Shown here in pieces: positions 16,287 through 55,341 of a stretch of 64,000 nt of DNA. A program made the position numbers and the translations under genes. Position 1 is the first letter of the stretch. Every line of letters begins with the position of its first letter. The notes under the pieces were generated by a model. It made no database searches, was not told where the DNA came from, and was given only the letters and a program-made list of their open reading frames with translations. The stretch comes from an uncultured Planctomycetia bacterium (GTDB lineage: Bacteria > Omnitrophota > Gorgyraeia > 2-02-FULL-51-18): positions 5,916 through 69,915 of the forward strand of contig CAYJVC010000004.1 of assembly GCA_964373505.1 (NCBI GenBank). Direction: 5' to 3'.

Positions 16287-16288
16287 GA

Positions 16289-19661: not shown

Positions 19662-20356
19662 TGCCGAGCCTTCCTGATCTTATTCGCTTGTTTGAGCGAG
19701 CTTCTTTCGAGCGACTCGAGGCGAAGCCCCACCTTCGTGGCGTGTTTTTTGTCAAGCAGGCTTTTTAAATTTACTTCCACGTTCCATCGCGCGGCGCGGA
19801 ACGCGGCTTCCAGAAGAAGCGCGGCTTCCGCCAGGTCGCTCGCCAGCCAGCGACTTGTGCGGGAAACCTCCCCCACGGCCATCCGGAGACTTTCATGGCA
19901 AAGCGAGCAGACCTCCAAGGGGATTGCGGCGCACGTTTCGAGCGCCCTTTGATAAAAGGGGCCGGACCTCTTCTTTTTGCCGATCCTCGAAAGCCTTAAG
20001 AATGCCTGCGCGTCTTTTGTGGCAAGCGTCAAGAGGCCCCGTCTTATTTTTCGCAACTTTTTTAAATGCGCGGCCGATTTTTTGCTGAATTTTCTCTTCT
20101 GGTTGATCCCGGCCGTCATTTCAAGCAGTGCGACGCCCAGCGCCGCCGTGACCGAAGCCGCGCTTCCTCCGCCCGGGGTCACGGAGGAGGAAGCCAGCCT
20201 ATTTAGGAATTCATGAAGCGGCTGTTTTGAGAAATGGAGCCCCGCGGGTATGCCCGCAGCACCTTCTACTTTTGCCCGCGGGGCGGAATCCTGAGCAAAG
20301 ACCCCGCTCCTGGGCGGGGTCTGCGTCGAAGGATCAAAGGGGTTGGCGACATTCAA
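19643..20356 (-). CDS. formiminotransferase-cyclodeaminase C-domain-like / methenyl-THF cyclohydrolase (FchA-like)
   Basis: TPGGGSAASVTAALGVALLEMTAG motif characteristic of the FTCD_C cyclodeaminase family. Confidence 0.6.
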   Translation of the reverse strand: MNVANPFDPSTQTPPRSGVFAQDSAPRAKVEGAAGIPAGLHFSKQPLHEFLNRLASSSVTPGGGSAASVTAALGVALLEMTAGINQKRKFSKKSAAHLKKLRKIRRGLLTLATKDAQAFLRLSRIGKKKRSGPFYQRALETCAAIPLEVCSLCHESLRMAVGEVSRTSRWLASDLAEAALLLEAAFRAARWNVEVNLKSLLDKKHATKVGLRLESLERSSLKQANKIRKARQWRRPA

Positions 20357-27968: not shown

Positions 27969-28820
27969 TCAACCGACGATGTCGAGCGCCACGTCGATGG
28001 AAGGCGCGTGGTGCGTCAGAGCGCCCACGGAGATCCTCTCCACCCCTGTTTGGGCGTAGTCCAGCACATTGTCGAGCGTGATGCTGCCTGAGGCCTCAAA
28101 AAGGATCTTGCCGCCCGTTCTCCTTCTTAGGTTGACCGCTTCACGCACGCTCTCCACGCTCATATTGTCGAGGAGAATATAGTCGACCGGTGTTTTCAGG
28201 GCTTCTTTCAGTTCCATGAGATTTTTTACCTCGACCCCGACAAGGGCGCGCTTCAACACGGACTCTTTTAAACGGGAAACGACGGAGCCAATGGATTCCT
28301 TCCGGAGGATCCTCAGGTGATTGTCCTTGATGAGCGCCTGGTCGTACAGCCCCATGCGGTGGTTCAGGCCGCCGCCCCTTGCGACCGCGTATTTTTCAAA
28401 AAGCCTCAAACCGGGCGTAGTCTTGCGCGTGTCCAGGATGTTGGCCTGCGTATTTTTCACTTTCTCGACGAATTCACGGGTGCGCGTGGCGACCCCTGAA
28501 AGATGGCTTAAGAAATTGAGCGCTGCGCGTTCCGCGATCAAAATGGAGGCGGCTGAACCTTCAATATAAGCCACTTCGCGGTTTTTTTCGATCCTTTCTC
28601 CGTCCCGGGCCACCGGGAGAAAGCGTAGGTCTTCGTCGACCAGGCGGAACACGCGTTCGGCGATCTGGAGGCCGCACAGGATGCCGGCCTCTTTGAATTC
28701 AATATCCGCTTTGATGTGCCGGTCTTTGGGGATGATCGAAGAGGTCGTGATGTCTTTCGACCCCACGTCTTCCCGGATGGCCTGCTTGACGATCGGGTCT
28801 ATCTGGCTTATCTGGAGCAT
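27969..28820 (-). CDS. nadC: nicotinate-nucleotide pyrophosphorylase (carboxylating)
   Basis: QPRTase-like body. I prefer the start at ATG MLQISQ (28820); the track start (TTG at 28871) would read through the family-B hairpin. Confidence 0.75.
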   Translation of the reverse strand: MLQISQIDPIVKQAIREDVGSKDITTSSIIPKDRHIKADIEFKEAGILCGLQIAERVFRLVDEDLRFLPVARDGERIEKNREVAYIEGSAASILIAERAALNFLSHLSGVATRTREFVEKVKNTQANILDTRKTTPGLRLFEKYAVARGGGLNHRMGLYDQALIKDNHLRILRKESIGSVVSRLKESVLKRALVGVEVKNLMELKEALKTPVDYILLDNMSVESVREAVNLRRRTGGKILFEASGSITLDNVLDYAQTGVERISVGALTHHAPSIDVALDIVG

Positions 28821-28833
28821 TGAAGTTCTCTCT

Positions 28834-28871
28834 TGACTTCGACGGGTCCTGCCGCTTCGGCTCGAAGTCAA
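28834..28871 (-). repeat. short family-B hairpin (copy B1) between valS and nadC
   Basis: TTGACTTCGACGGGTCCTGCCGCTTCGGCTCGAAGTCAA shares the core TTCGACGGGTCCTGCCGCT with copies at 50377-50487 and 57685-57828. Confidence 0.6.
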
Positions 28872-28875
28872 ACAG

Positions 28876-31596
28876 TTAATCTGTAAGGACCTTTAAATTT
28901 TCCAGAAGGCGTTTTTTGCGGTTTTCAAGTTCTTCGGCCCTTTTCTGCTCCTTCTCCACGATCTCCTTGGGTGCCTTCTTCAGAAAATCCTCGTTTTGGA
29001 GCCGGCCCTCGAGGCCGCGGATCATGCGCTCGACGTCCTCAAGCGCGGATTCGATGCGCTGGCGTTCTATCTGCGTGTCGATAAGGCCCGAAAGCACCAC
29101 ATAGGTTTCCACGCGGCCGATGTTGGCGACCGCCGATTCTTTGGGTCGCGCGACGTTTTTGCCTATCTGCAGTGACGAAACCTTCGCCATTTGCACGATG
29201 TAGGTGGAGTATTCTTTCAGGATCTTCAATTCGCGGTCGCGTGAAGTCTTGATCGCCACGGCCACAAGCTCCTTCGGATCGATCTGCCAGGCCGAACGCA
29301 CGTTTCGGATGGCCTGGATCTCGCTCGTGATGAGCTCAGCCTCGGCCTCCACTTTCGGGTCGATGCGTTTCTTATCCGGCTTCGGCCAGGAGCTTATCAT
29401 GATGGACTCCCCTTTATGCGGGATCTTCTGCCACACCTCTTCGGTGATGAACGGCATGAAAGGGTGTAAAAGTTTGAGCGATTTATCAAGCACTTCATTG
29501 AGTGTCCACTGGGTGCCTTCGGATTTGAGGTTGGGTTTGGCCAATTCCACGTACCAGTCGCAGAACTGGTGCCAGAAGAAATCGTAAAGCGTGGAAGTCG
29601 CTTCGTTGAAACGCAGCTTTTCCAGGCTTTCCGTGACGCTGAAGATGGTCTGGTTCAGCCGGCTTAGGATCCAGCGGTCGAAGGGGTTGAAAGCCGCAAG
29701 CTTCGGCGCATTGCCGCCTTTCAGGAAGCCGGTGATCCGCTTTTTGTCCAGGTTCATGATCACGAACCGCGAGGCATTCCAAACCTTGTTCGTGAAATTA
29801 CGCCCCACCTCGAATTTTTCTTTGGAGGCGTGAACGTCCTGTCCTTCCGCAGTGATCGATAGGATGCCGTAGCGCAGCGCATCGGCGCCATATTCTTCGA
29901 TGATGTGGATGGGGTCGACGGCATTGCCGAGCGATTTCGACATCTTGGCGCCTGTCTCGTCCCGCACGATGCCATGGATGTAGACCTCCTGGAAAGGTTC
30001 CTTGCCCATGAATTCATGGCCGGCCATGATCATGCGCGCAACCCAGAAGAAGATGATCTCGTAGCCGGTGACAAGGCAAGAGGTCGGGTAAAAGAATTTG
30101 AGATCCTTGTTGGATTCGGGCCAGCCGAGCGTGGAAAATGGCCACAGCCAGGAAGAAAACCAGGTGTCCAGGACGTCGGGGTCCTGCGCGAGGTCCACGA
30201 GGCCGCAATGAGGGCACTGTCGGGGAGTCTCTCGCGAGACAATCATGCCGGGTTCGGTGTATACTTTTTGCTCTTTGGCAGGTTGGACAACGATGCATTT
30301 GGCGCGGCAGGGTTCGCAATACCAAACGGGGATCCGGTGCCCCCACCAGATCTGGCGCGAAATACACCAGTCCCGGACGCTGTTCATCCAGTCAAGATAA
30401 ACCTTGGTCCAGCGCTTCGGAGTGAAGGTCGTCCGGCCCTCTCGGACGGCCGCGATCGCGGGCTTTGCCAGCGGCTTCATGCGCACGAACCACTGAGGAG
30501 AAAGGGTGGGTTCGACGATCGTCTGGCAGCGGTAGCAGTGGCCGACCGCGTGCACATGTTCTTTCATTTCCAAAAGGATCCGCCGGTCCTCGAGTTCGGT
30601 GACAATTTTCTTTCGCGCTTCGAACCGGTCAAGCCCGCGGTAAGGGCCCGCGTTTTCATTGAGCGTGCCGTCGGGGTTCAGGATATTCATGAACTCAAGC
30701 CCGTGCTTTTCGGCAAGCTTAAAATCCACGGGGTCGTGGGCCGGCGTGATCTTGAGGGCACCCGTGCCGAATTGCGGGTCGATCAGGTCGTCCCGGATGA
30801 CCGTAAGGCGCCGGTTGAGAAGAGGCAGGATGACGGTTTTGCCTTCCAGGTGCCGGTAACGCTCATCTTTGGGGTTGAATCCCACGGCCGTGTCGCCCAG
30901 CATCGTCTCGGGACGTGTCGTCGCGATCGTCAAATGCTGATCGGTCCCTTCGATCGCGTATTTCAGATAATAAAGATGGCCCGTGATCTCCTTGTGCTGC
31001 ACCTCTTCGTCGGACAAGGCCGTCTGGCAGCGCGGACACCAGTTGATGATGTATTTGCCGCGATAAATGAGCCCCTTTTCATAAAGGCGCACGAACACTT
31101 CCCGCACGGCCCGCGACAACCCCTCATCCATCGTGAACCGGGTGCGCTCCCAGTCGCACGAAGCGCCCAGGCGATGGAGCTGGCGGATGATCGTGTGGCC
31201 GTATTTCTCTTGCCATTTCCAGACGCGTTTCAGGAATTCCTCGCGGCCCAGCGCTTGCCGTGAGAATCCCTCTTCCTTCAAGGATTTTTCAACGACGTTT
31301 TGCGTCGCAATGCCGGCGTGGTCGGTGCCCGGGACCCAGAGCGCCTCAAATCCTTTCATGCGCTTGTAGCGGATGAGAATGTCCTGAAGGGTGTTGTTCA
31401 GCGCGTGGCCCATGTGGAGAATGCCGGTCACGTTCGGCGGCGGGATCACGATCGTATAAGGTTTTTTTTTCGACCGGGCAGACGCGGTGAAGTAGCGCTT
31501 CGCCAGCCACTCTTGGTACCGGCTCTTCTCGACCTGCTTGGCGTTGTAGACCTTTGGGAGCTCGTGGCTCGGGCTGTGAAGTGTCTGGGGGTTCAT
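28876..31596 (-). CDS. valS: valine--tRNA ligase
   Basis: 906 aa with HMGH and KMSKS motifs and a C-terminal coiled coil. Confidence 0.95.
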   Translation of the reverse strand: MNPQTLHSPSHELPKVYNAKQVEKSRYQEWLAKRYFTASARSKKKPYTIVIPPPNVTGILHMGHALNNTLQDILIRYKRMKGFEALWVPGTDHAGIATQNVVEKSLKEEGFSRQALGREEFLKRVWKWQEKYGHTIIRQLHRLGASCDWERTRFTMDEGLSRAVREVFVRLYEKGLIYRGKYIINWCPRCQTALSDEEVQHKEITGHLYYLKYAIEGTDQHLTIATTRPETMLGDTAVGFNPKDERYRHLEGKTVILPLLNRRLTVIRDDLIDPQFGTGALKITPAHDPVDFKLAEKHGLEFMNILNPDGTLNENAGPYRGLDRFEARKKIVTELEDRRILLEMKEHVHAVGHCYRCQTIVEPTLSPQWFVRMKPLAKPAIAAVREGRTTFTPKRWTKVYLDWMNSVRDWCISRQIWWGHRIPVWYCEPCRAKCIVVQPAKEQKVYTEPGMIVSRETPRQCPHCGLVDLAQDPDVLDTWFSSWLWPFSTLGWPESNKDLKFFYPTSCLVTGYEIIFFWVARMIMAGHEFMGKEPFQEVYIHGIVRDETGAKMSKSLGNAVDPIHIIEEYGADALRYGILSITAEGQDVHASKEKFEVGRNFTNKVWNASRFVIMNLDKKRITGFLKGGNAPKLAAFNPFDRWILSRLNQTIFSVTESLEKLRFNEATSTLYDFFWHQFCDWYVELAKPNLKSEGTQWTLNEVLDKSLKLLHPFMPFITEEVWQKIPHKGESIMISSWPKPDKKRIDPKVEAEAELITSEIQAIRNVRSAWQIDPKELVAVAIKTSRDRELKILKEYSTYIVQMAKVSSLQIGKNVARPKESAVANIGRVETYVVLSGLIDTQIERQRIESALEDVERMIRGLEGRLQNEDFLKKAPKEIVEKEQKRAEELENRKKRLLENLKVLTD

Positions 31597-31618: not shown

Positions 31619-33181
31619 TTAATTTATGAGCTTGTATTCGATCGCGTCCACGAGCGCCTCCCAACTGGCATCGATGATGTTGCTCGAGACACCGACCGTC
31701 GTCCAGATCTTTTTGTCGTCCCTGGACTCGATGATCACGCGCACCTTGGCGGCGGTGCCGGCTTCGGAATTAACGACGCGTACTTTGTAGTCGTCCAGAT
31801 GGATCTCTTGAACTTGGGGGTAAAACGGCCGCAGCGCTTCCTTGAGCGCTTTGTCGAGCGCATTCACCGGGCCATCCCCTTGCGCCGTGGCAGTGTTTTC
31901 CTCTTTTCCCACGGTGAGCCGGATTTTGGCCGTGGAATCGGGGTTTTTATCGGCGATATTTTCAGCAAGAACCTCAACTTTCTTGAATTCAAAGAATTTT
32001 TTCCTTTTTCCGGTGACTTCCCGGAGCAATAGCTCGAAACTGGCCTCGGCCGATTCGTATTGATAGCCCTCATTTTCCTTTTCCTGCACTTTTTGGAGGA
32101 TCTTACGGGTCTCAGGCGATTCCTTCTTTAACTCGATGTCGAGTTCCTGCGCCCTCAGCATGATGTTCGTCTTTCCTCCGAGCTCCGAAATGAGAAAGCG
32201 CCGCCGGTTGCCCACAAGCGACGGATCAATGTGCTCGTAGGTCTGGGGATTTTTCATGACCGCGTTGATGTGGACGCCGCCTTTGTGCGCGAAAGCGCTC
32301 TGGCCGACATAGGGCTGGTTCTTAGGCAGCGCCATGTTGCCCACTTCGCTCACAAAACGCGCCACTTCCGTGAATTCCTTAAGTTTCTGCGGCGCCACGC
32401 AGGCATAGCCGAGCTTCAACTGAAGATTGGCGGTGATGGCCAAGAGATCGGGATTGCCGCAGCGTTCTCCGAACCCGTTGACGGTCCCCTGAACATGCGT
32501 TGCGCCCGCTTCGACGGCCGCCACCGCGTTCGCGATCCCCACCCCGCAGTCGTTGTGCGTGTGGATCCCGAGGGTTCCGCCGAGTTTCGCGCGCACCTCG
32601 GAGACGATCTGTGAGACCTTGGACGGAAGGCTGCCGCCGTTCGTGTCGCAAAGCACCAGCACCGAGGCGCCGGCCTCAAGCGCAGCCTCAAGGGTTTTCA
32701 ACGCATACGCGGGATTTTGCGTGTAACCGTCAAAAAAATGCTCGGCGTCGTAGACCACTGTTTTTTCTTTGGATCTTAAATACCGCACCGAATCCTGGAT
32801 CATGCGGATATTTTCTTCCAGCTCCGTTTTAAACACTTCTTGGACGTGCATGTCCCAGCTTTTGCCGAAGATCGTAATGACTTGGGTGCCGGCGGCCACG
32901 AGGCCCCTCAGGTTGTCGTCTTCGGCGGCCTTCGTGCGGGCCTTGCGCGTTGAACCGAATGCGACGATCTGGGAATTTTTCAGCTTCACTTTCCGGATCT
33001 GGTCAAAAAACTCAATATCTTTCGGATTGGCACCCGGCCAGCCGCCCTCGATAAAGTGAAGCCCCAGCTCGTCGATCCTTTTGGCGATCAGGATCTTGTC
33101 CTGAACGGAAAAAGAGATCCCCTCACTTTGCGAGCCGTCTCTCAAGGTGGTGTCGTAGATCTGGATCCGCTTGGAGGTCAT
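31619..33181 (-). CDS. (R)-citramalate synthase / 2-isopropylmalate synthase family (CimA-like) with C-terminal LeuA-dimer domain
   Basis: IQIYDTTLRDGSQSEGISFS...IEGGWPGANPKDIEFF. It sits at the head of the lysC-thrB-like-thrC-hom block, suggesting the citramalate route to isoleucine. Confidence 0.65.
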   Translation of the reverse strand: MTSKRIQIYDTTLRDGSQSEGISFSVQDKILIAKRIDELGLHFIEGGWPGANPKDIEFFDQIRKVKLKNSQIVAFGSTRKARTKAAEDDNLRGLVAAGTQVITIFGKSWDMHVQEVFKTELEENIRMIQDSVRYLRSKEKTVVYDAEHFFDGYTQNPAYALKTLEAALEAGASVLVLCDTNGGSLPSKVSQIVSEVRAKLGGTLGIHTHNDCGVGIANAVAAVEAGATHVQGTVNGFGERCGNPDLLAITANLQLKLGYACVAPQKLKEFTEVARFVSEVGNMALPKNQPYVGQSAFAHKGGVHINAVMKNPQTYEHIDPSLVGNRRRFLISELGGKTNIMLRAQELDIELKKESPETRKILQKVQEKENEGYQYESAEASFELLLREVTGKRKKFFEFKKVEVLAENIADKNPDSTAKIRLTVGKEENTATAQGDGPVNALDKALKEALRPFYPQVQEIHLDDYKVRVVNSEAGTAAKVRVIIESRDDKKIWTTVGVSSNIIDASWEALVDAIEYKLIN

Positions 33182-34407
33182 GCCTTGTTTGACCTTTCGA
33201 GTTTGAATTTGTTGTGCAAAAGCCGGACCGCTTTTTCAGCCTCGCTTTTTTTGACGACGCAGGAGATCTTGATCTCGCTGGTGGAGATCATCTCGATATT
33301 GATCCTGTTCTTTCCGAGCGTCTCAAACATCGCGGCCGCAACACCCGCATGGCTTCGCATGCCGATGCCGACCACGGAGACCTTTGCGATATTCGGATCG
33401 AGCAGCACTTCTTTTGCGCCGATCTTCTTCGAGGCGGCTTTGAGCGCGTGCACGGCCCGGAGAGCGTCGCCTTTGGGCACCGTGAACGAGATGTCCGTGT
33501 TGAAGGCGGACTTCCCGATATTCTGGATGATCATGTCCACATGGATCCCCTTGTTCGCAAGGGTCTTAAAAATGCCCGCCGCGATGCCGGGCCGGTTGGG
33601 GACGCCTCGCACAGAAATTTTAGCTTCGTTTTTATTTAAAGTTACGCCGCGGATCAATACGTCTTCCATTGAGCTATCCTCCTTCACGATCCATGTGCCT
33701 TCGTTTTTTGTAAAACTGCTCCTGACATGAAGCGGAATATGGTGCTTACCGGCCAACTCGATAGACCGCGACTGCATGACCTGTGCGCCGCTCGAGGCCA
33801 TTTCCAGCATCTCCTCATAACTGATCTTCCGGATTTTCCTGGCTTTTTTCACAAGGCGCGGGTCCGTGGTGAATATTCCCTCGACATCCGTGTAGATCTC
33901 GCAGGCGTCGGCCTCCAGCGCCTTTGCAAGCGCAACCGCGGTTAGGTCGCTGCCGCCGCGGCCGAGTGTGGTGATGTCATTTTGCGGGTTGACTCCTTGA
34001 AAGCCCGCCACGATCACAACCTTCTTATTCTTAAGCTCCCGTAAAATACGTTGGGTATTGATATGGCGGATGCGCGCGCAGGTGTGCGCGGGGCTTGTGC
34101 GAATGCCCACCTGCCAGCCCGTAAATGAAACAGCCGCGCTCCCGAGCTTCTCGAGCGCCATCGCCAGAAGCGCCATGGAGACCTGCTCCCCCGTGGACAT
34201 CAGAACATCGAGTTCCCGCTCGGAAGGTTTTCGTGTGATCCGGGAAGCGAGCCCCAAAAGTTCGTCCGTCGTGTCGCCCAACGCACTCACCACGACCACG
34301 AGGCGGTGCCCTTTTTTTCGGGTGTCATCGATCCGGCGGGCGACATTTTTGATCCGGTCGGGATTTGCGACGCTTGAGCCGCCGAATTTCTGCACGATCA
34401 GTTTCAT
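33178..34407 (-). CDS. lysC: aspartate kinase
   Basis: MKLIVQKFGGSSVANPDRIKNVA start and C-terminal ACT domains. The track ORF includes a 15-aa extension that is really the family-A element. Confidence 0.9.
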   Translation of the reverse strand: MKLIVQKFGGSSVANPDRIKNVARRIDDTRKKGHRLVVVVSALGDTTDELLGLASRITRKPSERELDVLMSTGEQVSMALLAMALEKLGSAAVSFTGWQVGIRTSPAHTCARIRHINTQRILRELKNKKVVIVAGFQGVNPQNDITTLGRGGSDLTAVALAKALEADACEIYTDVEGIFTTDPRLVKKARKIRKISYEEMLEMASSGAQVMQSRSIELAGKHHIPLHVRSSFTKNEGTWIVKEDSSMEDVLIRGVTLNKNEAKISVRGVPNRPGIAAGIFKTLANKGIHVDMIIQNIGKSAFNTDISFTVPKGDALRAVHALKAASKKIGAKEVLLDPNIAKVSVVGIGMRSHAGVAAAMFETLGKNRINIEMISTSEIKISCVVKKSEAEKAVRLLHNKFKLERSNKA

Positions 34408-34490
34408 CCCACCACCTCTTTTCGAGGCGGCATAGCCGCCTCCGCGTGACAAACTGAAATTGAAAATTTCAAAAGAGGGGGTGGGGTCAT
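34404..34490 (-). repeat. family-A palindromic element (copy b) with 28-aa micro-ORF MTPPPLLKFSISVCHAEAAMPPRKEVVG
   Basis: Arms CCCACCCCCTCTTTT / AAAAGAGGTGGTGGG. Its ATG overlaps the apgM TGA and its TGA overlaps the lysC ATG (ATGA at both ends). Confidence 0.75.
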
Positions 34491-35632
34491 TTCAAAAAAT
34501 GCTCCATGAGCGGGTGTCCTTCAGGGAATTGAAGTTTGCTTTGAGCCGCCGTTTTTTCGTTGAAGCCCGGGTGCTTTTCCGCGGCGAATCCGTGCCCCGC
34601 GATGAGGAACGGCACCGGCCCGTGAGCAGCCGAACGGCTCGCGGAGGATGTCGCCGTGTCCGTGCAAACGAGCAAACGGTGATCCCCCAGGTTTTCCAGG
34701 CACTTCGTGGCAATTCCCACAACCTGCGCATCAAAGCGTTCGATCAGACGAATTTTTGTTTTCCAGGGATCGGTTTCGGGTTGTACCTGGTCTGCGGCCA
34801 TGTACACGAACGTGAGTTCATGGTTTCGGAGCGCCTTTTCAAGGTCGTCGACGACCTTGAAACCCAGGGACAGTCCGAGCCCCTTGGCAAAATCAGCCTG
34901 AGAAAATACGGCGCCGTCCACGCCAAAGCGATCCTTGAAACGGGGAAGCCGGGGCCGGCGGCCCTGCCCCCAGGGCCAGATCATGTTCGCCGGATTTTCC
35001 CCGAGGTCTATCCTGACCCGGTTGATCTCATGGTGCTCCAGAACGGTCTTGGATTTTTCCATGAGACTTGTGATGACCTCGGCGTCTTCCCCCTTCGGGA
35101 GCACCTTGGCCATTTTCTGACCGATCGCCCGTGAAGGCGGAACGCACTCCAGCTCATCGAGACTTTCGGCCTTTTCAGGGTCACGGATCATCAGGATATT
35201 TTTGTAGCCTTCTCTCGGATAGAACTTGATCTGCGGGCTTGAGAGTTTTTTATTGAGTTCCTCGATCAAGAGTGAGGACTCCTCGGGCGGAATGAAGCCT
35301 GCGCTTACATCTGCCAGAAGCCCGTCCGAAACCGTGACAAGGTCGCAGCGGAACGCGATCTCATTGTCGTCCTGGGAGATACCGGCTGCGGCGGCCTCAA
35401 GCGGCGCAACCCCCGTGTAAAATTCTTCCGGAGGGTAACCCAGAATGGCCATCGCCGCGACGTCGCGTGTTAGGGCCAATTTAGGCGACGTGAAGATCGC
35501 CGAACCCACACGGCCTTTTTTTGCCAATTGATGCAAAAATGGGGCTTTTGCCAGTTCCATCGGCGTGCGGCCGCCCAGAGCCTCGACCGGATCGTCCGTG
35601 GCCGCTTCGCAAACCAACACCGCGTATTTCAC
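34487..35632 (-). CDS. cofactor-independent phosphoglycerate mutase (archaeal ApgM type); by context a candidate non-orthologous homoserine kinase
   Basis: 381-aa ApgM-family protein that starts with GTG. It is embedded between lysC and thrC with hom upstream, and no classical thrB is present in the block. Confidence 0.6.
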   Translation of the reverse strand: MKYAVLVCEAATDDPVEALGGRTPMELAKAPFLHQLAKKGRVGSAIFTSPKLALTRDVAAMAILGYPPEEFYTGVAPLEAAAAGISQDDNEIAFRCDLVTVSDGLLADVSAGFIPPEESSLLIEELNKKLSSPQIKFYPREGYKNILMIRDPEKAESLDELECVPPSRAIGQKMAKVLPKGEDAEVITSLMEKSKTVLEHHEINRVRIDLGENPANMIWPWGQGRRPRLPRFKDRFGVDGAVFSQADFAKGLGLSLGFKVVDDLEKALRNHELTFVYMAADQVQPETDPWKTKIRLIERFDAQVVGIATKCLENLGDHRLLVCTDTATSSASRSAAHGPVPFLIAGHGFAAEKHPGFNEKTAAQSKLQFPEGHPLMEHFLK

Positions 35633-35715
35633 CCCATCCCCTCTTTCTGAGGCGCCAACGGCGCCTCGGCGTTGTACGCTGAAATTGAAAAATTCAAAAG
35701 AGGGGATGGGGTCAT
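35629..35715 (-). repeat. family-A palindromic element (copy c) with micro-ORF MTPSPLLNFSISAYNAEAPLAPQKEGMG
   Basis: Arms CCCCATCCCCTCTTTT / AAAGAGGGGATGGGG. It makes an ATGA overlap with the thrC stop and a GTGA overlap with the apgM-like start. Confidence 0.75.
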
Positions 35716-36770
35716 AGTTTTATCGTTTCCAGGATCGCCTCAAGTTTGGCGGGCACCGTTTGCGGTTCTCGGACGGCTTTGACCGCGTAGTCGGGGTCCT
35801 TGAGGCCATGTCCCGTCAACACGCAGACGATCGTAGCCTTTTTTTTCCCCGTAAAATAATTCCGCTTCGCCAATTTCAACACACCGGCGACGCTGGCCGC
35901 GCTCGCGGGCTCCACGAATACGCCGTCATTTTTAGCCAAGAATTCATAGGCGTTCAGGATTTCCTCGTCCGTGACCGAATCGATCACGCCGCCGGATTCG
36001 TCGCGCGCGGCCTCGGCCGGTTTCCAACTCGCCGGGTTCCCGATCCGGATCGCGGTCGCGAGGGTCCTGGGCTCGGGCACCACTTTTTTATTCACGATCG
36101 GCGCGGCACCCTCCGCCTGAAACCCGAGCATCACGGGCTTCGCAGGTACGACTTTTTTGTCGAAGTATTCCTTGTAACCCTTCCAGTAGGCCGTGATATT
36201 TCCCGCGTTCCCGACCGGGATCGCGTGGAAGTCCGGCGCTTGATGGTCCAACTGATCGCAAATCTCGAAGGCCCCCGTCTTTTGCCCTTCGATCCGGTGC
36301 GGGTTCAGGGAATTCACGAGTTTTGCCGGATACTTCGAGGAAATTTCTTTGACCATCTGAAACGCGGCGTCAAAATTTCCGTCGAGCGCCAAGACTTGCG
36401 CACCGTGGATCAACGCCTGGCCGAGCTTTCCCAGCGCCACGGCGCCCTTCGGGATCAACACCACGCATTTAAGCCCCGCCTTTGCCGCGTAGGCGGCCGC
36501 CGAGGCGGACGTGTTGCCGGTGGAAGCGCAGATCACGACCTTAGCCCCCTCCTCGCATGCCTTGGAAATGGCCACCGTCATTCCCCGGTCCTTGAAGGAA
36601 CCGGTGGGATTCAGGCCCTCATATTTCAAATAGACCGAGGCTTTCAGGTTTTTCGAGAGCGCTTCGGAAAAGATCAGAGGCGTATTTCCCTCGTTCAGAG
36701 TGACGACAGGGGTCGCGGCGCTCACGGGCAGATACGCCCTGTATTTTTCGATGACCCCGCCCCACCTCAT
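35712..36770 (-). CDS. thrC: threonine synthase
   Basis: 352 aa with a PLP-lysine region GSFKDRG. Confidence 0.9.
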   Translation of the reverse strand: MRWGGVIEKYRAYLPVSAATPVVTLNEGNTPLIFSEALSKNLKASVYLKYEGLNPTGSFKDRGMTVAISKACEEGAKVVICASTGNTSASAAAYAAKAGLKCVVLIPKGAVALGKLGQALIHGAQVLALDGNFDAAFQMVKEISSKYPAKLVNSLNPHRIEGQKTGAFEICDQLDHQAPDFHAIPVGNAGNITAYWKGYKEYFDKKVVPAKPVMLGFQAEGAAPIVNKKVVPEPRTLATAIRIGNPASWKPAEAARDESGGVIDSVTDEEILNAYEFLAKNDGVFVEPASAASVAGVLKLAKRNYFTGKKKATIVCVLTGHGLKDPDYAVKAVREPQTVPAKLEAILETIKL

Positions 36771-38074
36771 GGCTCGACCCGTATCACGACCGTTTTTTCG
36801 CGAACGTCCTTGGCCCGGTCGATCTCGGAAAGCGCCCCTCTCAAGTCCCTTTCCTCCGCCTCATACGTAAGGATGATGACGGGAACCGAGCGGCTTGAGT
36901 GAGATTCCTTCTGGTGCACGCTCAAGATGGAGATCCCGTGTTTCCCTAGGCTTTGGGCGATCCGGCCGAGAACCCCCGGCCGGTCCGCCACCTGAAAACG
37001 CAGATAATATTTTGAGACGAGTTTCCCGATCGGCAGCACTTTCTGCGGCGTCGCGGACCATGACGCGCAGGCTTCTACATCGGCCTCCTGAGAAATTTTT
37101 TTGGCAATGTCGATCACGTCGCTCACGACGGCGGAAGCGGTTGGGAACATTCCCGCGCCGCGGCCGTAAAAAAGAAGATCGCCGGCCTGATTGGCATGAA
37201 CGAACACGGCGTTGTAAACGCCGCGCACATGGGAAAGCGGGTGGTCCATCGGCAGCATCGTCGGATGCACGCGAAGCTCAAGCCCCTCTTTCAGCTTTTT
37301 GCCGATCGCCAGGAGTTTGATCGCGTAGCCAAGCTCCTTCGCATAGGTCACATCCGCGGCGTTGAGCGAACGAATGCCTTCCACGTGGATCGACCGGAAC
37401 GGAAGCTCGGCTCCAAAGGCGAGGCGCGCGAGCAGGGCCAATTTATGCGCGGAGTCGGTCCCGTCGATGTCGAGCGCGGGGTTCTTTTCGGCGTAGCCTT
37501 TCCGCTGAGCCTCTTTTAGAGCTTCGTGGAAGGGGCTTGCGTTCTCGGACATGGCCGACAGAATGCTGTTGCAGGTCCCATTCACGATGCCCAGAAAATG
37601 TGAAATTTTATTGGACGCCAGGCCCTCCGTTAGTGATTTGACGATTGGGATCCCGCCACAGACACTCGCCTCGATCCCCAACTTCCTATGGTGGAGAAAG
37701 GCCTCATTAAAAAGGCTCTTGCCCTGCTCCGCCAACAGCGCCTTGTTGGCCGTCACGACGTGCTTGCCATGGCGAAACGCTCCAAGAATGATGCCTTTTG
37801 CAGGATGGACCCCTCCTATCAACTCGACCACGATGTCGATCGTCGGGTCTTTCCAAAGATCGGAAGGACGACCCGTCAGAAGCGCGCGCGGCACCACGAG
37901 CGGCCTTTTTTTGGAAACGTGCCTTACGCAGACTTTTTTGATCACAAGCCGCAATCCGGTTTTGGCCTCGATTTCTTTGGCGCCGGACCGGAGGATCCGG
38001 TACACACCCCTTCCCACGGTTCCAAGCCCCAGAATTCCTATAGCGATCGTTTTAGCCGGCAGGGATCCGGTCAT
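36767..38074 (-). CDS. hom: homoserine dehydrogenase (with C-terminal ACT domain)
   Basis: IAIGILGLGTVGRGV Rossmann N-terminus, 435 aa. Confidence 0.9.
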   Translation of the reverse strand: MTGSLPAKTIAIGILGLGTVGRGVYRILRSGAKEIEAKTGLRLVIKKVCVRHVSKKRPLVVPRALLTGRPSDLWKDPTIDIVVELIGGVHPAKGIILGAFRHGKHVVTANKALLAEQGKSLFNEAFLHHRKLGIEASVCGGIPIVKSLTEGLASNKISHFLGIVNGTCNSILSAMSENASPFHEALKEAQRKGYAEKNPALDIDGTDSAHKLALLARLAFGAELPFRSIHVEGIRSLNAADVTYAKELGYAIKLLAIGKKLKEGLELRVHPTMLPMDHPLSHVRGVYNAVFVHANQAGDLLFYGRGAGMFPTASAVVSDVIDIAKKISQEADVEACASWSATPQKVLPIGKLVSKYYLRFQVADRPGVLGRIAQSLGKHGISILSVHQKESHSSRSVPVIILTYEAEERDLRGALSEIDRAKDVREKTVVIRVEP

Positions 38075-38093
38075 TTTTCTCTTTCATAAATTG

Positions 38094-38169
38094 TCGGGGT
38101 GGTGAGATTTGAACTCACGATCTCGCGCACCCCAAGCGCGCGCTCTGGACCAAGCTGAGCCACACCCCG
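38094..38169 (-). tRNA. tRNA-Pro (GGG anticodon)
   Basis: Cloverleaf CGGGGTGTGGCTCAGCTTGGTCCAGAGCGCGCGCTTGGGGTGCGCGAGATCGTGAGTTCAAATCTCACCACCCCGA with anticodon loop TTGGGGT. CCA is not encoded. Confidence 0.8.
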
Positions 38170-38177: not shown

Positions 38178-39188
38178 TCATAGGTTTTCCTTGTAAGGCT
38201 CGCGGTGCATCAGCGCTTTCACCACCTGACGCGGCTCCGCGCCTTTGAATAAAATATGATAAACCGCTTCCGAAATAGGCATGGCAATTTTGTGCTTTCT
38301 GGCCAATCGGGTGGCCGCCTCGGCGGTCGCGACACCTTCTACGACCATCTCAGTGCCTTTCAGGACATATTTAAGGCCGACGCCTTTCGCGATCTCTTTG
38401 CCAAGCCAACGGTTGCGGCTTTGGGGACTGAGGCAGGTCGTCGTCAAATCACCCAGGCCGCTTAAACCCATGAATGTCTCGCGCCGGGCGCCCATGGCTG
38501 TCCCGAGTCTGGCCATTTCCGCCAGGCCGCGCGCAAAAAGCACGGCGCGCGTGTTCGCGCCGAACCCGAGGCCCTCCACGATCCCGGAGCAGATCGCGAT
38601 CACATTTTTGATCGACCCCCCGAGCTCGACACCCACCAGGTCGTCGTTTTCAAAAAGGCTAAATGCGGCTGTCTCAAAGATCTTTCTTATTTTTTTCGGG
38701 TCTCCGCGGCGGTTGGAAGCAACGGAAGCGGCCGAGGGCATTTTCAGCGCGACCTCGCGGGCGATGCAGGGGCCTGAGATCACACTGAGCGGAACGCGTC
38801 CGAGCTCATCCGCCACCACTTGGGACATGGTTTTGAGGCTTTTTGTCTCAATGCCTTTTGCGACCGACACAAAGCTCAGATGCCGAAGTCCTGTCTTGCC
38901 GATTTTTTTCAGCACGCCGCGCATGAATTGCGACGGCGCCGCCAACACCGCGATGTCCGCTTGACGGCAGGCCTCATGAATGTCCGGGGTCAGCCGCACC
39001 TTTTCCGGTATCCGAAAGCCGGGTAGAAATTTTACATTCTCCCTTTTTCGCCGGATTTCTTCCACGTATTCGGGAAACGCGCCCCACAGACGGACTTCAT
39101 ATCCTTTTTCCGCCAAAAGCAGCGCCAGCGTCGTGCCCCAGCCGCCGTCGCCTAAAATGCTTATTTTTGTATCTTTATATACCGTCAT
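38178..39188 (-). CDS. gpsA: NAD(P)H-dependent glycerol-3-phosphate dehydrogenase
   Basis: KISILGDGGWGTTLALLLAEKGYEV Rossmann N-terminus, 336 aa. Confidence 0.9.
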   Translation of the reverse strand: MTVYKDTKISILGDGGWGTTLALLLAEKGYEVRLWGAFPEYVEEIRRKRENVKFLPGFRIPEKVRLTPDIHEACRQADIAVLAAPSQFMRGVLKKIGKTGLRHLSFVSVAKGIETKSLKTMSQVVADELGRVPLSVISGPCIAREVALKMPSAASVASNRRGDPKKIRKIFETAAFSLFENDDLVGVELGGSIKNVIAICSGIVEGLGFGANTRAVLFARGLAEMARLGTAMGARRETFMGLSGLGDLTTTCLSPQSRNRWLGKEIAKGVGLKYVLKGTEMVVEGVATAEAATRLARKHKIAMPISEAVYHILFKGAEPRQVVKALMHREPYKENL

Positions 39189-39789: not shown

Positions 39790-40392
39790 TTAATTATCAT
39801 GTTCATCACTCTTATCTTTGAGTCGTGAAATATTAGACCGATGCGTCCATACAGCCAAAATAAAGAGAAAAACAGCATAACTGATGGTAAACCCCGAACA
39901 GTTGAATAAGACGGCAAAGATAACAAAGGAGCCCACGGCCCCCAAAGAACTGATGGATACAGTTTTCCGGGTCACCCGCATGAGGAGGAGCCAGACAGTC
40001 ATCATGAAAGCCAATATCAGAGGGAACCCCGCGCCAATGGCGCCGGCGCCCGTCGCGATCCCTTTACCTCCCCTCCCGCCAAGAAAAGGCGTGAAAATAT
40101 GCCCGAAGACGGCACCGAGGCCAATGAGGAGGGAAAGTTCCGGCAAAGAGAGGTTGAATGAAGGTGCCGTGAATCTGGACAGAATAAGCGCCGGCAGAAA
40201 TCCCTTTAAGAAATCGATCGTAAAAATGAGGGCGCCCATTTTTTTTCCCAAAAGGCGCGCGGCGTTGGTGGCGCCCACATTGCCGCTCCCGTATTTACGG
40301 ATATCGGCGCCCTTGAAGAGCCTCACAAATAGATACGCGGTCGGGATGGCGCCCGTGAAAAAAGCCGCCAAAAATGCGGCGACAAATGGCAT
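39790..40392 (-). CDS. plsY: glycerol-3-phosphate acyltransferase PlsY
   Basis: GSGNVGATNAARLLGKK motif. I place the start at ATG MPFVAAF, making a TAATG overlap with the pgsA stop; the track ORF has a 140-aa spurious extension. Confidence 0.85.
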   Translation of the reverse strand: MPFVAAFLAAFFTGAIPTAYLFVRLFKGADIRKYGSGNVGATNAARLLGKKMGALIFTIDFLKGFLPALILSRFTAPSFNLSLPELSLLIGLGAVFGHIFTPFLGGRGGKGIATGAGAIGAGFPLILAFMMTVWLLLMRVTRKTVSISSLGAVGSFVIFAVLFNCSGFTISYAVFLFILAVWTHRSNISRLKDKSDEHDN

Positions 40393-40940
40393 TAGCGAAG
40401 CAACCTCTCGCCCATCCGGATGTACAGCGCGCCCGACCAGAGGGTCACAATGACCGTTCCCATGAACAAGAGAAACCTCGCGGGCGCGGGCGCAGCCGCA
40501 AGCGAGAGAAAAAGCGTCAACATTTGGAACACGGTCGTGATCTTTCCGATAAAAAGAGGCTCGGCCTTGAGCTCCCCGGTCAAGAGGAAGACGATCGCTG
40601 AGCCGATCAGGATGATCATGTCCCGCGCGATGACGGGGATCGCCACCCAAGCCGGTATCCGCATCGAATCCGGGAGGTTGGGCATGAGCGTCAATGACAG
40701 AAATCCGCTCAAAAGAAGTAATTTGTCCGCGATCGGGTCGAGATAACTTCCCAGAACCGTTTTTTCGTTGAGCCTTCTCGCCAGGTACCCGTCTATGCCG
40801 TCGGTGGTGCACGCGACGAGGAACACGCCGATACTTGCCAGATGAAAAAAGCTCCTCTGGGGTGAATAGTAAGAAAGAAGGGTCACAAATAGCGGCACGA
40901 GGATGATCCTGAAAAGGCTGAGATTATTCGGAAGGTTCAT
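40392..40940 (-). CDS. pgsA: CDP-diacylglycerol--glycerol-3-phosphate 3-phosphatidyltransferase
   Basis: CDP-alcohol phosphatidyltransferase motif DGIDGYLARRLN...GSYLDPIADK. Confidence 0.85.
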   Translation of the reverse strand: MNLPNNLSLFRIILVPLFVTLLSYYSPQRSFFHLASIGVFLVACTTDGIDGYLARRLNEKTVLGSYLDPIADKLLLLSGFLSLTLMPNLPDSMRIPAWVAIPVIARDMIILIGSAIVFLLTGELKAEPLFIGKITTVFQMLTLFLSLAAAPAPARFLLFMGTVIVTLWSGALYIRMGERLLR

Positions 40941-47162: not shown

Positions 47163-48151
47163 CGCCGCGAAAGAAGCGCCGCCTCCTCGGAAAGACCTTT
47201 TTTACAGATCAGCGTACCCTGTTTTGTCTGTATCACGATCAGGTCCTTGACTCCCAGCGTGATGACAGGCGTTGGGTGGTGATTCAAGATCAAAGAGCCG
47301 TGCGTGTCATCCGTGTGGCAGACCCCTCGGACAAGATTATCGTGTCTGTCACGTTCACCCTTCCGGTGAAACATGTCCCAGCTTCCCATGTCGCACCAGT
47401 CCATTTTGGTTTTGATTACGACGAGGTTCTTCGCTTTTTCGAGAAGCGCGTGATCGATGGAAATTTTGGGTAAGCCGGTGTAACGAAGCCGTCCAAATTC
47501 CGGCGCCTTTTTTTTCATGGCCTCGAGAAATGTGCCGATCCGCCACGTGAAGATCCCCGCATTCCACAGAAAACGCCCTGATCTCAGGTACTGCGCAGCC
47601 TTCGCGTGGCCGGGTTTTTCGGCAAAATGTTTTACCCTATAAGCCGACGGGCAGGCGGACATCGCCGCGCCCGCCTCGATATAGCCGTAACCGACGGCGG
47701 CGAACGTGGGTTTGATCCCCACGGTCACGAGCGATCCTTCTTTTTGGGCGAGGGCGATGGCGTCGCTTAGGGTTTTTTGAAAAAGCTTTTCGTTCCGGAT
47801 GAGATGGTCTGCCGGAAAAAAGGAAACCACGGTTTCGACGCCAAAACGTTCCCCGATCGCGCGGCAGGAGAGATAAATGGCGGCCGCCGTGTTTCTCCTT
47901 GACGGCTCAAGGATGAGGTTTTGTTTTTTTAATCCCGGAAGTTCGGCCTGAATGAGCCCCGCCTGCTTCCGGGTCGTCACCACATAAACGTTATTCTTCG
48001 CATAGACCCGCAGGAGTCTTTGATAAGTTTTCTGCAGGAGAGATTCCTTATTGTCGAGGCGGATGCTGTATTTGGGAAATTTCTTGTGGGTCAGCGGCCA
48101 GAACCGCTCCCCGGGCCCACCCGCTAGGATGACCGCCTTGGCGCTAGTCAT
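47159..48151 (-). CDS. mannose-1-phosphate guanylyltransferase-like nucleotidyltransferase
   Basis: AVILAGGPGERFWPLT sugar-nucleotidyltransferase N-terminus. The start is uncertain between M1 and M10. Confidence 0.65.
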   Translation of the reverse strand: MTSAKAVILAGGPGERFWPLTHKKFPKYSIRLDNKESLLQKTYQRLLRVYAKNNVYVVTTRKQAGLIQAELPGLKKQNLILEPSRRNTAAAIYLSCRAIGERFGVETVVSFFPADHLIRNEKLFQKTLSDAIALAQKEGSLVTVGIKPTFAAVGYGYIEAGAAMSACPSAYRVKHFAEKPGHAKAAQYLRSGRFLWNAGIFTWRIGTFLEAMKKKAPEFGRLRYTGLPKISIDHALLEKAKNLVVIKTKMDWCDMGSWDMFHRKGERDRHDNLVRGVCHTDDTHGSLILNHHPTPVITLGVKDLIVIQTKQGTLICKKGLSEEAALLSRR

Positions 48152-48938
48152 GGATGGCCTTTGCGAACGGGCGCACAAATTTTTTTGCGAACGCCTCGGC
48201 GTTCAAATGAAGATGCGCGGCCAGCGTGTTTACCAGGGCGCTGCCTACGATGACGCCGTCGGCGATCTTTGACACCTGCTTCGCACGGGCAGGATCTGAG
48301 ACGCCGAAACCCACGCACACCGGGAGTGCCGTCATTTTCTTGATAGCGGAAATATTTTTACGGACGCTCTCCGTCACAAGGTGATGGGCGCCGGTTACGC
48401 CGGTCAGGGAAACGTAGTAAATAAAACCCCTCGAGGCTCCTACGATAAGCCGGCGCCGTGCCCCGGTGCTTGTGGGCGCCAAAAGATACACCAGGTCCAC
48501 GCCGTTCCTGCGCATGAGCGCGCGGATGTCTTTTTCCTCGTCCGGCGGTAGGTCCGGCACTATCAAACCGTCCACGCCGGAGTCGCGCGCGGCCTTCGCG
48601 AAATGAGCCGGGCCCATCGCGAGGATCGGATTGAGATAGCTCATGAGGAGGATCGGGGTGCTTGATTTCCTGCGGGCTTTTTTCACAAGCGCTAAAATTT
48701 TACGCAGCGTCGTGTGTCGCTTGAGCGACCGGTTGGAAGCCTCCTGGATGACGGGCCCGTCCGCCAAGGGGTCTGAAAAAGGCACCCCCAGCTCAATGAG
48801 GTCCACCCCCGCCTTCTCCAATGTGCCGATCAACTCCCCGGTCATTTTGAGGCTTGGGTCGCCGGCCGTGATAAAAACGACAAGCGCCTTTTTCCCTTCC
48901 TTTTTCAGCGCTTTGAATTTTTTTTCTATACGATTCAC
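48144..48938 (-). CDS. trpA: tryptophan synthase alpha chain
   Basis: 264 aa that starts with GTG and is typical of TrpA (LVVFITAGDPSL...). Confidence 0.9.
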   Translation of the reverse strand: MNRIEKKFKALKKEGKKALVVFITAGDPSLKMTGELIGTLEKAGVDLIELGVPFSDPLADGPVIQEASNRSLKRHTTLRKILALVKKARRKSSTPILLMSYLNPILAMGPAHFAKAARDSGVDGLIVPDLPPDEEKDIRALMRRNGVDLVYLLAPTSTGARRRLIVGASRGFIYYVSLTGVTGAHHLVTESVRKNISAIKKMTALPVCVGFGVSDPARAKQVSKIADGVIVGSALVNTLAAHLHLNAEAFAKKFVRPFAKAIHD

Positions 48939-49021
48939 CCCACCCCCTCCTTTTGAGACAACGATGTTGTCTCAATGCTATGCATCAAAATTGAAAATTT
49001 TAAAGGAGGGGGTGGGGTCAT
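48935..49021 (-). repeat. family-A palindromic element (copy e) with micro-[31 protein letters not shown]
   Basis: Arms CCCCACCCCCTCCTTT / AAAGGAGGGGGTGGGG. It makes an ATGA overlap with the trpB stop and a GTGA overlap with the trpA start. The AAGGAGG Shine-Dalgarno site lies in the 3' arm. Confidence 0.8.
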
Positions 49022-50223
49022 AGATGCAAAACCTTTGAAACGCTTTCCATGTCTTTGTCGCCCCGTCCCGAGAGGCAAACCACGATCACTTCTTTCTTTT
49101 TAAAGCGTGATTTGTGTTTGGCCAGATACCCGAACACGTGCGCGGTTTCAAGCGCCGGAATGATGCCCTCGGTTTGGCTTAAAATTTTCATCCCCAAGAG
49201 CGCTTCCTTGTCGGTCGCCGATACGTATTCCGCGCGGCGGATCTTTTTCAGGTACGCATGTTCAGGGCCTACGCCGGGATAGTCGAGACCCGCCGAGATC
49301 GAGTGCGCGAGTTTCACCTGTCCGTCCCGGTCCTGCAACACCTCGCTTTTTGACCCGTGCAGGACGCCGATCTTGCCCAAAGACAGTGTCGCCGAATGGC
49401 GGTCCGTGCCCAGGCCATGGCCTGCCGCCTCCACACCGATAAGTTTCGTTCTGCTTTTAAGGAAAGGATAAAAAAGGCCGATGCTGTTCGACCCGCCGCC
49501 CACGCAGGCGATGCAGGTGTCGGGCGAACGAACCCCCAGAGGCCTTAACTGCGCAATCGTCTCTTTTCCGATCACCGATTGAAAATCCCTCACCATCACG
49601 GGGTACGGATGAGGCCCGATCACCGAGCCAATAATGTAATGCGTGTCCTTCACATGAGTGACCCAGTCGCGGATCGCCTCGTTCACGGCGTCTTTCAAGG
49701 TCCGCGAGCCGGATCTTACAGGGATCACGCGCGCGCCGAGGAGTTTCATGCGGAATACGTTGAGCGCCTGCCGCTCGATGTCCACCTGCCCCATGTAAAC
49801 ATCGCAGGGAATACCGAAAAGAGCGCACACGGTCGCGGTCGCAACGCCATGCTGCCCGGCTCCCGTTTCGGCGATCACGCGCTTTTTGCCCATGCGAAGC
49901 GTCAAAAGCGCCTGCCCAATCGTGTTGTTGATCTTGTGGGCGCCGGTGTGGAGAAGGTCCTCCCGCTTAAGATAGACTTTTTTCACGCCGAGATATTCGG
50001 CCAGGTGCCGGGCTTCGGTGAGCGCAGTCGGGCGACCGGCAAAATTCCTCAGGTAATGGCTGACTTCCTTTTTGAATTTCGGATCGAGCCGAGTGCTCCG
50101 GTAAGCTTTCTCAAGCTCTTCCAGCGCGGCCATCAAGGTTTCGGGCACGTACTTCCCTCCGTACGGCCCGAAGTGGCCGCGCGAGTCCGGAACTTTGGTT
50201 CGGCGGTTACGCTGATCTGGCAT
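49018..50223 (-). CDS. trpB: tryptophan synthase beta chain
   Basis: 401 aa with a PLP-binding region HTGAHKINN. Confidence 0.95.
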
Positions 50224-50920
50224 TTTGGATGAATTCTTTCAAAAGTTCATGGTCCTTGATCCCCGGGCGCTTTTCCACGCCGCTCGAGACGTCCACGCCG
50301 TAGGGTGAAAGTGTCTGAATGGCTTTCCGGACGTTGCTGGGACGAAGCCCCCCTGAAATAATCACTGGTTTTAGTCGATCTCGAAGGTCACGGGTCCTGC
50401 CGCTCCGAGAGCCCATTTTTTGCAAGTGTTTCCCTTGCAAAAAATGGGCGCCCCTCTCCGCGTCACCCGTGACCTTCGAGATCTCGGCTGACAACATTTT
50501 CCAATTGAAATTTTGCCCGCTTCCTCCGTATCGGCCTGTTACTTGTGTGTCAAATAAATAGGCGTCCGCGGGAAAGCCGAGAAGATTTTCCAAATGAAAC
50601 CCTTCATCGACGCGAAAAGCCTTTATGACTTTACAACAACGGAGCTTTTTTGTATAGGCCCGGGTTTCGTCCCCGTGAAGCTGCACCGCGCTTAAGCCGC
50701 AGAGCCGGGCTATCATCTCCACTTTCCTGGGGTTTTCGTTCACGAAAACCCCCACCGTCGTGACAAAGGGTCCGAGTTTTCCTATGATCTCTTGTGCCCT
50801 TTTTGGGGTCAGCCGCCGCGGGCTTTTGGCGAATACGAACCCGAGCGCGTCGGCCCCACACCCAAGTGCGGCGCGCGCGTCGGGCAAATTCGTGATCCCG
50901 CAGATCTTAACCCTGACCAT
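50207..50920 (-). CDS. trpF: phosphoribosylanthranilate isomerase carrying an in-frame ~37-aa insertion derived from a family-B palindromic element
   Basis: VKICGIT...[16 protein letters not shown] then an extra [36 protein letters not shown] before the conserved PVIISGGL. Confidence 0.8.
50377..50487 (-). repeat. family-B palindromic element (copy B2) inserted in-frame within trpF
   Basis: CGATCTCGAAGGTCACGGGTCCTGCCGCTCCGAG...CGCGTCACCCGTGACCTTCGAGATCTCG with ~20-bp perfect inverted arms. Length is a multiple of 3. Confidence 0.75.
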
Positions 50921-55330: not shown

Positions 55331-55341
55331 AACCACTCCTA

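Follow-up and report, generated by a model that had tools for sequence, protein, structure and literature searches.

The threonine operon in a 64,000-nucleotide stretch of contig CAYJVC010000004.1 (positions 5,916 to 69,915 of the forward strand; assembly GCA_964373505.1, an uncultured Planctomycetia bacterium placed by GTDB in the Omnitrophota), here called the window, includes a gene (34487..35632, minus strand) whose 381-amino-acid (aa) product, termed X below, was identified from its open reading frame (ORF), Pfam and NCBIfam matches and alignments as a HomK/ApgM-family protein. X is a genuine relative of HomK, the phosphoglycerate mutase (PGM)-like alternative homoserine kinase, and lies in the place usual for that enzyme within the threonine operon. 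It is still a protein under purifying selection and belongs to a clade that is an in-place descendant of canonical HomK with a single origin. Only one of its seven nucleophile and metal-ligand residues (D325) is kept, and judged by its residues X is unlikely to be the missing kinase through any chemistry now known. On balance we favour the interpretation that X is a conserved non-catalytic HomK derivative, retained to bind a ligand, to regulate or to act as a scaffold, while a gene beyond the window supplies the kinase step.

HomK, also termed ThrB2 and represented by TIGR02535, comprises ApgM-like proteins proposed to replace ThrB. Mutants in BT2402 of B. thetaiotaomicron require threonine (PMC7311316), ThrB2 and ThrB show a complementary distribution across gut genomes (PMC9026213), and E. 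coli thrB::kan is rescued by BT2402 and by the divergent DET_RS08350 of D. mccartyi (bioRxiv 10.1101/2024.10.14.618325). This published complementation and complementary occurrence bear out the premise of the initial annotation that PGM-family proteins replace ThrB in some bacteria. The phosphate donor and mechanism of HomK are still uncertain. Phosphotransfer in the alkaline phosphatase superfamily requires a serine or threonine nucleophile and a bimetal centre. The functional residues described for HomK are a catalytic serine (S56), the Asp and His residues that coordinate metal, and a glutamate (E299) that determines specificity and is Lys in true PGMs; all HomKs with experimental support retain the serine and metal ligands, and diverged homologs were accepted as HomK only after conservation of the functional residues had been checked (bioRxiv 10.1101/2024.10.14.618325).

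The corresponding positions of X were taken from three agreeing alignments, produced by HMMER against PDB entries 2ZKT and 3KD8, by MAFFT with 120 homologs and by BLASTP against the closest canonical relative (P0080). The canonical DGMAD motif reads CEAATD in X, with D9 replaced by Glu, and GSDVAN reads LTRDVAA, so that the catalytic serine (S56 of BT2402) is R56. HVEAxDEAGH reads YMAADQVQPE, in which the specificity Glu, three residues N-terminal to the DEAGH Asp, has become A279, D282 has become Gln and H286 Glu. PDHxTP reads TDTATS, with D325 kept and H326 replaced by Thr, and THT reads SAA, with H335 replaced by Ala. The two metal sites of HomK are thus represented in X by E9, Q282, E286, T326 and A335, ligand D325 alone being retained. 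The E299 column was taken to be the Glu of HVEAxDEAGH, as it is Lys in both 2ZKT (HFKPTDAAGH) and 3KD8 (NIKATDVAGH) and the spacing to D346/H347 fits. The 150 canonical sequences aligned share a conserved 16-residue loop, VPGATGyyDTnY.gKA, that is deleted in X. X has also lost R75, N97 (Asp in X), H113, S142, H167 and D168, which are invariant in the 24 canonical homologs from the first search. An alignment artefact was ruled out as the source of this residue loss, since the HMMER, MAFFT and BLASTP alignments agree and the AlphaFold2 model is confident.

Translation of X starts at a GTG codon with GAGGGGA just 5' of it, and the N-terminus, (V)KYAVLV, aligns to the MKY start of its homologs. 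In a Pfam scan the PF10143 PhosphMutase domain scored 134.8 bits against a cut-off of 21.5, with PF01676 Metalloenzyme as a second match. The top NCBIfam model was TIGR02535, 'proposed homoserine kinase', on which X scored 320.0 bits against a trusted cut-off of 446.3; scores were likewise below the cut-offs of NF003242 (315 bits versus 426) and TIGR00306 (302.9 bits versus 320). On TIGR02535 canonical homologs from Omnitrophota reach 515-569 bits and other members of the degenerate clade described below 234-367 bits. The nearest named relatives in the homolog search were metagenome-assembled genomes of Candidatus Omnitrophota. The ORF, the PF10143 domain and the closest curated model therefore uphold the initial description of X as an ApgM/COG3635-family homolog inside the threonine operon. 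Its further designation as likely the missing homoserine kinase was not supported: the residues by which the HomK authors judge such proteins (Ser, metal ligands and specificity Glu) are lost, and X falls below the cut-offs of TIGR02535 and TIGR00306.

Family membership also raises the idea that X is a glycolytic cofactor-independent PGM (ApgM) present in the threonine operon by chance. The Pfam PhosphMutase family, the TIGR00306 score of 303 bits, near the cut-off of 320, and the lack of any other PGM in the window agree with this idea, but the phospho-Ser nucleophile and metal ligands that ApgM requires are missing (position 56 being Arg), the specificity position is Ala (A279) where PGMs have Lys (K302 of 2ZKT), and X nests among HomK-type proteins, which have Glu there. 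A glycolytic PGM was accordingly rejected on residues and phylogeny, and we regard it as very improbable.

Despite these losses the fold is predicted to be intact. The AlphaFold2 model of X, built from the family alignment, has a predicted local distance difference test score (pLDDT) of 97 and a predicted template modelling score (pTM) of 0.93, and a Foldseek search with it returned 2zkt_B (TM-score 0.81, E-value 3e-30), so that the model has the ApgM-family fold with its PhosphMutase domain. X resembles the archaeal ApgM structures (2ZKT of P. horikoshii; 3KD8 and 3IDD of T. acidophilum) in this two-domain alkaline-phosphatase-superfamily fold, with about 23% identity to 2zkt_B, and differs from them in lacking the nucleophile, metal sites and specificity Lys. 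Across degenerate and canonical types 18 alignment columns are invariant, among them F94, E118, N204, R207, D209, L210, E212, P214, A215, W219, W221, G224, E298 and E359. Several of these lie in a HomK-type motif at residues 200-224 of X, EINRVRIDLGENPAN..W.WGQG, whose core RIDLGENPAN..W.WGQG is common to X and HomK; 2ZKT has Lys at the positions of D209 and E212. In charge this exchange parallels the E299/Lys switch, and the two acidic residues may help to bind an amino-acid substrate.

The ratio of nonsynonymous to synonymous substitution rates (dN/dS) between the window and its closest relative (L001, 70% identical) was about 0.14 for X (0.13-0.14) and 0.05-0.07 for hom, thrC, ask, cimA and valS, at dS values of 1.5-2.2 that are near saturation. 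Mean pairwise identities in the degenerate lineage were 68% for hom, 75% for thrC, 56% for X and 77% for ask, and in the canonical lineage 47%, 66%, 50% and 63%, respectively, giving X/thrC ratios of 0.76 and 0.75. These values bear on the suggestion that X is a functionless, slowly decaying relic held in the operon by gene-to-gene translational coupling. X does evolve fastest in the block, plsY excepted, with a dN/dS roughly double that of the neighbouring genes; however, this ratio is still far under 1, full-length, frameshift-free ORFs persist in over 100 sequence clusters whose identity has fallen to approximately 42-45%, and the 18 invariant columns accompany a confidently predicted fold. 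We consider a relic improbable.

To place X among its relatives, an eight-position signature, D-S/T-E-D-H-D-H-H, was scored in the homologs extracted from 147 of 150 loci (GTDB genomes and JGI metagenomes). It was intact in approximately 125 of the 147, down to 29% identity, and these intact relatives come from Actinomycetota, Armatimonadota, other Omnitrophota, Bathyarchaeia, Halobacteriota and Nitrososphaerota. Overall, about 140-150 further bacterial and archaeal members of the family retain the signature. The protein search yielded 96 degenerate proteins, of which 92 keep none to two of the seven catalytic residues (none in 7, one in 63, two in 22, three in 3 and four in 1), with diverse substitutions and without a new consensus. 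The residues at position 56 include Pro (23), Gly (19), Ser (19), Ala (11), Asp (8) and Arg (6), those at position 286 Arg (19), Lys (17) and Thr (12), those at position 326 Val (23), Thr (16) and Tyr (15), and those in the specificity-Glu column Pro (22), Ala (19), Glu (17) and Gly (15). The VPGATGyyDTnY.gKA loop is deleted clade-wide, and the median length is 380 aa compared with 399 aa for canonical proteins.

A neighbour-joining tree built from 250 members of the family placed 107 of the 109 degenerate sequences, mostly from Omnitrophota, in a single clade with no canonical member inside; the sister group of this clade comprised the canonical proteins P0064, P0069, P0070, P0073 and P0080. 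Gene order was likewise shared. In degenerate loci L001, L003, L006-L011, L072, L075 and L076 the order is hom-thrC-X-ask, continuing in most cases with cimA-valS-nadC-uvrB-birA if the contig is long enough, and canonical HomK occupies the same slot in the Omnitrophota loci L012-L015 and L078. The two sister-group members looked up, P0080 (L151) and P0073 (L152), have the same thrC-X-ask slot, in P0080 followed by cimA-valS-nadC. The operon context thus fits HomK, as had been argued at the outset. X as a paralog of a canonical copy was rejected, the sister group holding the same operon slot. Peptide-pattern scans of contigs (e.g. with NMIWPWGQ) added only about 12 clade loci, and such patterns could overlook a further, canonical copy elsewhere in those genomes. 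Two other canonical-HomK Omnitrophota loci, L002 and L004, have the order X-cstA-ask-cimA with hom-thrC not upstream; the cstA gene (carbon starvation/peptide or pyruvate transporter family) between homK and ask lies at 11182-12771 in L002 and 11191-12765 in L004.

Active-site changes were also observed outside this clade. A Candidatus Omnitrophota protein (L019, 1834-3024; JACQQT010000035.1) occupies the same hom-thrC-X-ask-cimA slot, has the signature D-T-R-H-H-L-L-H with motifs PATHVAF, HARACHEASH and PLLNTP, and is phylogenetically separate from the degenerate clade. Its residues suggest an independent partial decay and hence that HomK catalysis may have been lost repeatedly within Omnitrophota. 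On a sediment metagenome contig from ENA (L132, ORXB01004551), an otherwise canonical HomK beside hom and thrC has Arg for the catalytic Ser (GREVAN), which may reflect either an error in sequencing or a further loss at an early stage. Among members of the degenerate clade with full Omnitrophota-type synteny, L006-L009 and L011 (CAZBAY01, CAZDBQ01, CAYJXB01, CAYUTV01 and CAYSKO01) are titled 'uncultured Planctomycetia bacterium' and L010 'Candidatus Eisenbacteria'; the taxonomy labels of the L006-L011 records look unreliable.

HomK chemistry in X appears very unlikely because the nucleophile and metal positions vary freely across the clade and the adjacent conserved loop is gone, and O-phosphohomoserine must still be made because hom and thrC are intact; together these points favour a non-catalytic derivative with the kinase elsewhere. 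In the sequence of events that we propose, a canonical HomK in the threonine operon has lost, with no relocation, its nucleophilic Ser, the two metal sites, the Glu that sets specificity and the nearby conserved loop, while the fold and the HomK-type motif at 200-224 have been kept through this decay. X would then most likely no longer form O-phosphohomoserine by HomK chemistry and would remain in the threonine pathway as a protein without catalysis that may still bind a ligand. One possibility is that it partners ThrC or Ask in regulation or as a scaffold, its output being matched to theirs through the ribosome-binding-site-sequestering stems described below. The homoserine kinase activity needed by hom and thrC would be supplied by another gene beyond the window.

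Several observations weigh against this interpretation. No alternative homoserine kinase was found in the 64-kb window or in approximately 20 kb around each of about 12 clade members, and the unassigned ORFs in gaps of the relatives' operons, inspected for a thrB-sized gene, resemble secreted or HD-domain proteins. Both hom and thrC remain intact and show good conservation, so O-phosphohomoserine has to come from some enzyme, for which X is by position the sole candidate. An active enzyme would equally be expected to stay in the threonine operon throughout a large clade and under purifying selection. D13, D57 and D325 persist, and 64% of members have E9, which could leave a residual one-metal site, and Ser or Thr occurs at position 55 in 66 of the 96 members. 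Any partner protein or ligand of X is putative.

The main rival to a non-catalytic role draws on much the same evidence, and holds, in line with the initial annotation, that X is still the homoserine phosphotransferase or kinase of this lineage, working through a rewired site, for example with a single Mg2+ bound by E9, D13, D57 and D325, or by direct in-line transfer from a donor with no phospho-Ser intermediate. Its conserved position next to thrC and ask within an intact hom-thrC operon, the purifying selection acting on it, the failure to find thrB in the window or the relatives' flanks and the retention of the 200-224 motif together with R95, D108 and E118, and of D13, D57 and D325, would all be accounted for in this way. 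GapMind moreover leaves 8% of prototrophs without any recognised thrB and unknown homoserine kinases therefore exist. Yet the former catalytic positions (56, 286 and 326) vary freely and no new conserved set has replaced them, E9 is found in just 64% of members, the loop conserved in canonical proteins is deleted, and the experimentally supported HomKs all keep the serine and metal ligands. We therefore judge a rewired enzyme unlikely, though it is the alternative to be taken most seriously, and retain a non-catalytic HomK derivative as the preferred interpretation.

ThrB, the GHMP kinase, would fill the pathway step that the operon context of X implies; it has no homology to X. Neither the GHMP domain (PF00288) nor the GHMP motif is present in X, and neither was found in the window or the relatives' flanks. 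A Pfam scan of about 50 ORFs, covering almost every ORF in the 64 kb that is 138 aa or longer, detected no GHMP kinase (thrB), His_Phos_1 (gpmA), iPGM_N (gpmI) or second PhosphMutase domain, and the GHMP motif PxGSGLGSS was absent from six-frame translations of the window and of 152 loci. The absence of a classical thrB from the operon, remarked on in the initial annotation, accordingly extends by Pfam and motif to the whole window.

All genes of the operon lie on the minus strand and are transcribed in the order hom-thrC-X-ask-cimA-valS; the neighbourhood hom-thrC-X-ask, joined by 4-nucleotide (nt) overlaps or 79-nt spacers, is that of HomK and its order is kept in relatives. The hom gene (38074..36767) encodes a 435-aa homoserine dehydrogenase with a C-terminal ACT domain (NF004976, 518 bits) and overlaps by 4 nt with thrC (36770..35712), encoding a 352-aa threonine synthase whose substrate is O-phosphohomoserine (TIGR00260, 327 bits versus a cut-off of 167). 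Downstream of X are ask/lysC (34407..33178, start revised as described below), encoding a monofunctional aspartate kinase (NF005155, 603 bits), and cimA (33181..31619), which overlaps ask by 4 nt and encodes a 520-aa citramalate synthase matching TIGR00977 over its full length (756.8 bits versus 450). The valS gene (31596..28876, minus) follows 22 nt after cimA and belongs to the conserved syntenic block, and nadC lies at 28871..27969 (minus). Upstream of hom are a tRNA-Pro(GGG) gene (38169..38093, minus), 18 nt away, gpsA (39188..38178, minus) and plsY (40812..39790, minus). Every gene in the original list (cimA-like, lysC, apgM-like, thrC, hom) was thus recovered by Pfam and NCBIfam, and the cimA-like call is sound at the level of annotation with 757 bits on TIGR00977. 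Placing cimA at the head of the block was wrong: that list had been read along the plus strand and, all genes being on the minus strand, cimA is at the tail (3' end) of the biosynthetic block.

X is bordered exactly by two copies of one element of approximately 80 nt, which occurs twice in the window with zero occurrences expected by chance. The thrC-X spacer (35633..35711, minus) is 79 nt long with a predicted folding energy (dG) of -51.7 kcal/mol (z-score -8.9), and the second copy (34408..34486, minus), running from the X stop codon to the ask ATG, has a dG of -40.1 kcal/mol (z-score -4.9). In each, the 5' arm (CCCCAyCCCCTCTTTT) begins directly after the upstream TGA, and the 3' arm (AAAGAGGrGrTGGGG) holds the ribosome-binding site of the downstream gene, X or ask, and abuts its start codon. 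The inner GC hairpins of the two copies differ in sequence with pairing kept by compensatory changes, and neither intercistronic hairpin had an Rfam match. The closest relative, L001, has the same spacer architecture between X and ask (11165-11275; -68.3 kcal/mol, z-score -9.5), whilst more distant relatives lack structured spacers and most have overlapping or adjacent genes. The arrangement looks like translational coupling of thrC to X to ask through sequestration of ribosome-binding sites. Stems that tie ask translation to ribosomes finishing X are what a relic maintained by coupling would need, but such an explanation does not extend to the majority of relatives, where structured spacers are missing and genes overlap or adjoin. 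The ask ORF as called begins at a TTG (34452), and the 45 nt between this codon and 34407 lie within the structured spacer. Because the alignment of curated aspartate-kinase models to the TTG ORF begins only at residue 16, and because the spacer would sequester the ask ribosome-binding site, the true start of ask is most likely the ATG at 34407.

Elsewhere in the window the remaining ORFs include his, trp, heme, folate and panB genes by Pfam, and biosynthetic operons for his (54932-59772), trp (48144-54931), hem (10448-16511) and folate/one-carbon functions (17931-20356) are present together with panB. This density of biosynthetic operons argues for an organism that is biosynthetically self-sufficient rather than a reduced symbiont. 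Across positions 1-64000 the minus strand carries 53 of 56 substantial ORFs and the cumulative GC skew falls steadily. The plsY ORF (39790-40812, minus) is 340 aa long with the PlsY domain confined to residues 150-331, and its relatives in L001 and L003 are approximately 200 aa, so that either the start has been over-called or an N-terminal extension is present. A ParA/MinD-type P-loop ATPase (AAA_31/CbiA) with a C-terminal AMPK1_CBM glycogen-binding module is encoded at 58-1140 (minus); this unusual fusion is also present in L004 (1074-2093) and hence on at least two Omnitrophota contigs.

Set against known systems, X is most like HomK/ThrB2, sharing its family and fold, with TIGR02535 as best curated model and hom, thrC and ask as neighbours, and holding the position orthologous to that of canonical HomK in sister Omnitrophota. 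X differs in scoring under the trusted cut-off, in lacking the catalytic Ser, five of the six other metal ligands, the specificity Glu and the VPGATGyyDTnY loop, and in being, at 381 aa, about 19 residues under the canonical median of 399. A parallel to the preferred interpretation is HisZ, an inactive paralog of HisRS that regulates HisG and so represents a pseudoenzyme regulatory subunit derived from a pathway enzyme. X would resemble it as a catalytically dead descendant of an amino-acid-binding enzyme located beside biosynthetic genes of the same pathway; it differs in being an ortholog decayed in place, whereas HisZ is a duplicated paralog, and any regulatory role of X is putative. This Omnitrophota lineage may have converted HomK either into a metal-free, serine-free phosphotransferase that uses a new mechanism on an alkaline-phosphatase scaffold or into an amino-acid-sensing, HisZ-like pseudoenzyme controlling ThrC or aspartate kinase, a proposal that we put forward tentatively, as possible rather than probable. 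The second decay in L019 hints at a non-catalytic role of HomK that has outlived its chemistry.

Replacement of ThrB by HomK is already published; what is new here is a monophyletic lineage of HomK with a degenerate active site. No description of a degenerate HomK was found in the literature on HomK/ThrB2/TIGR02535/COG3635 or on homoserine kinase in Omnitrophota. A homoserine-kinase call from family and operon context is tempting for gap-filling tools, but the residues make it unsafe for more than 100 sequence clusters, and threonine synthesis in this lineage therefore has a step still to be assigned. Comparison of the residues kept (R207, D209, E212, W219 and W221) with those lost may separate the parts of HomK concerned with ligand binding from those concerned with chemistry. 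The lineage provides a natural case of an enzyme decaying in place and yet under selection, and could uncover either another role for HomK, beyond catalysis, or a mechanism that is new.

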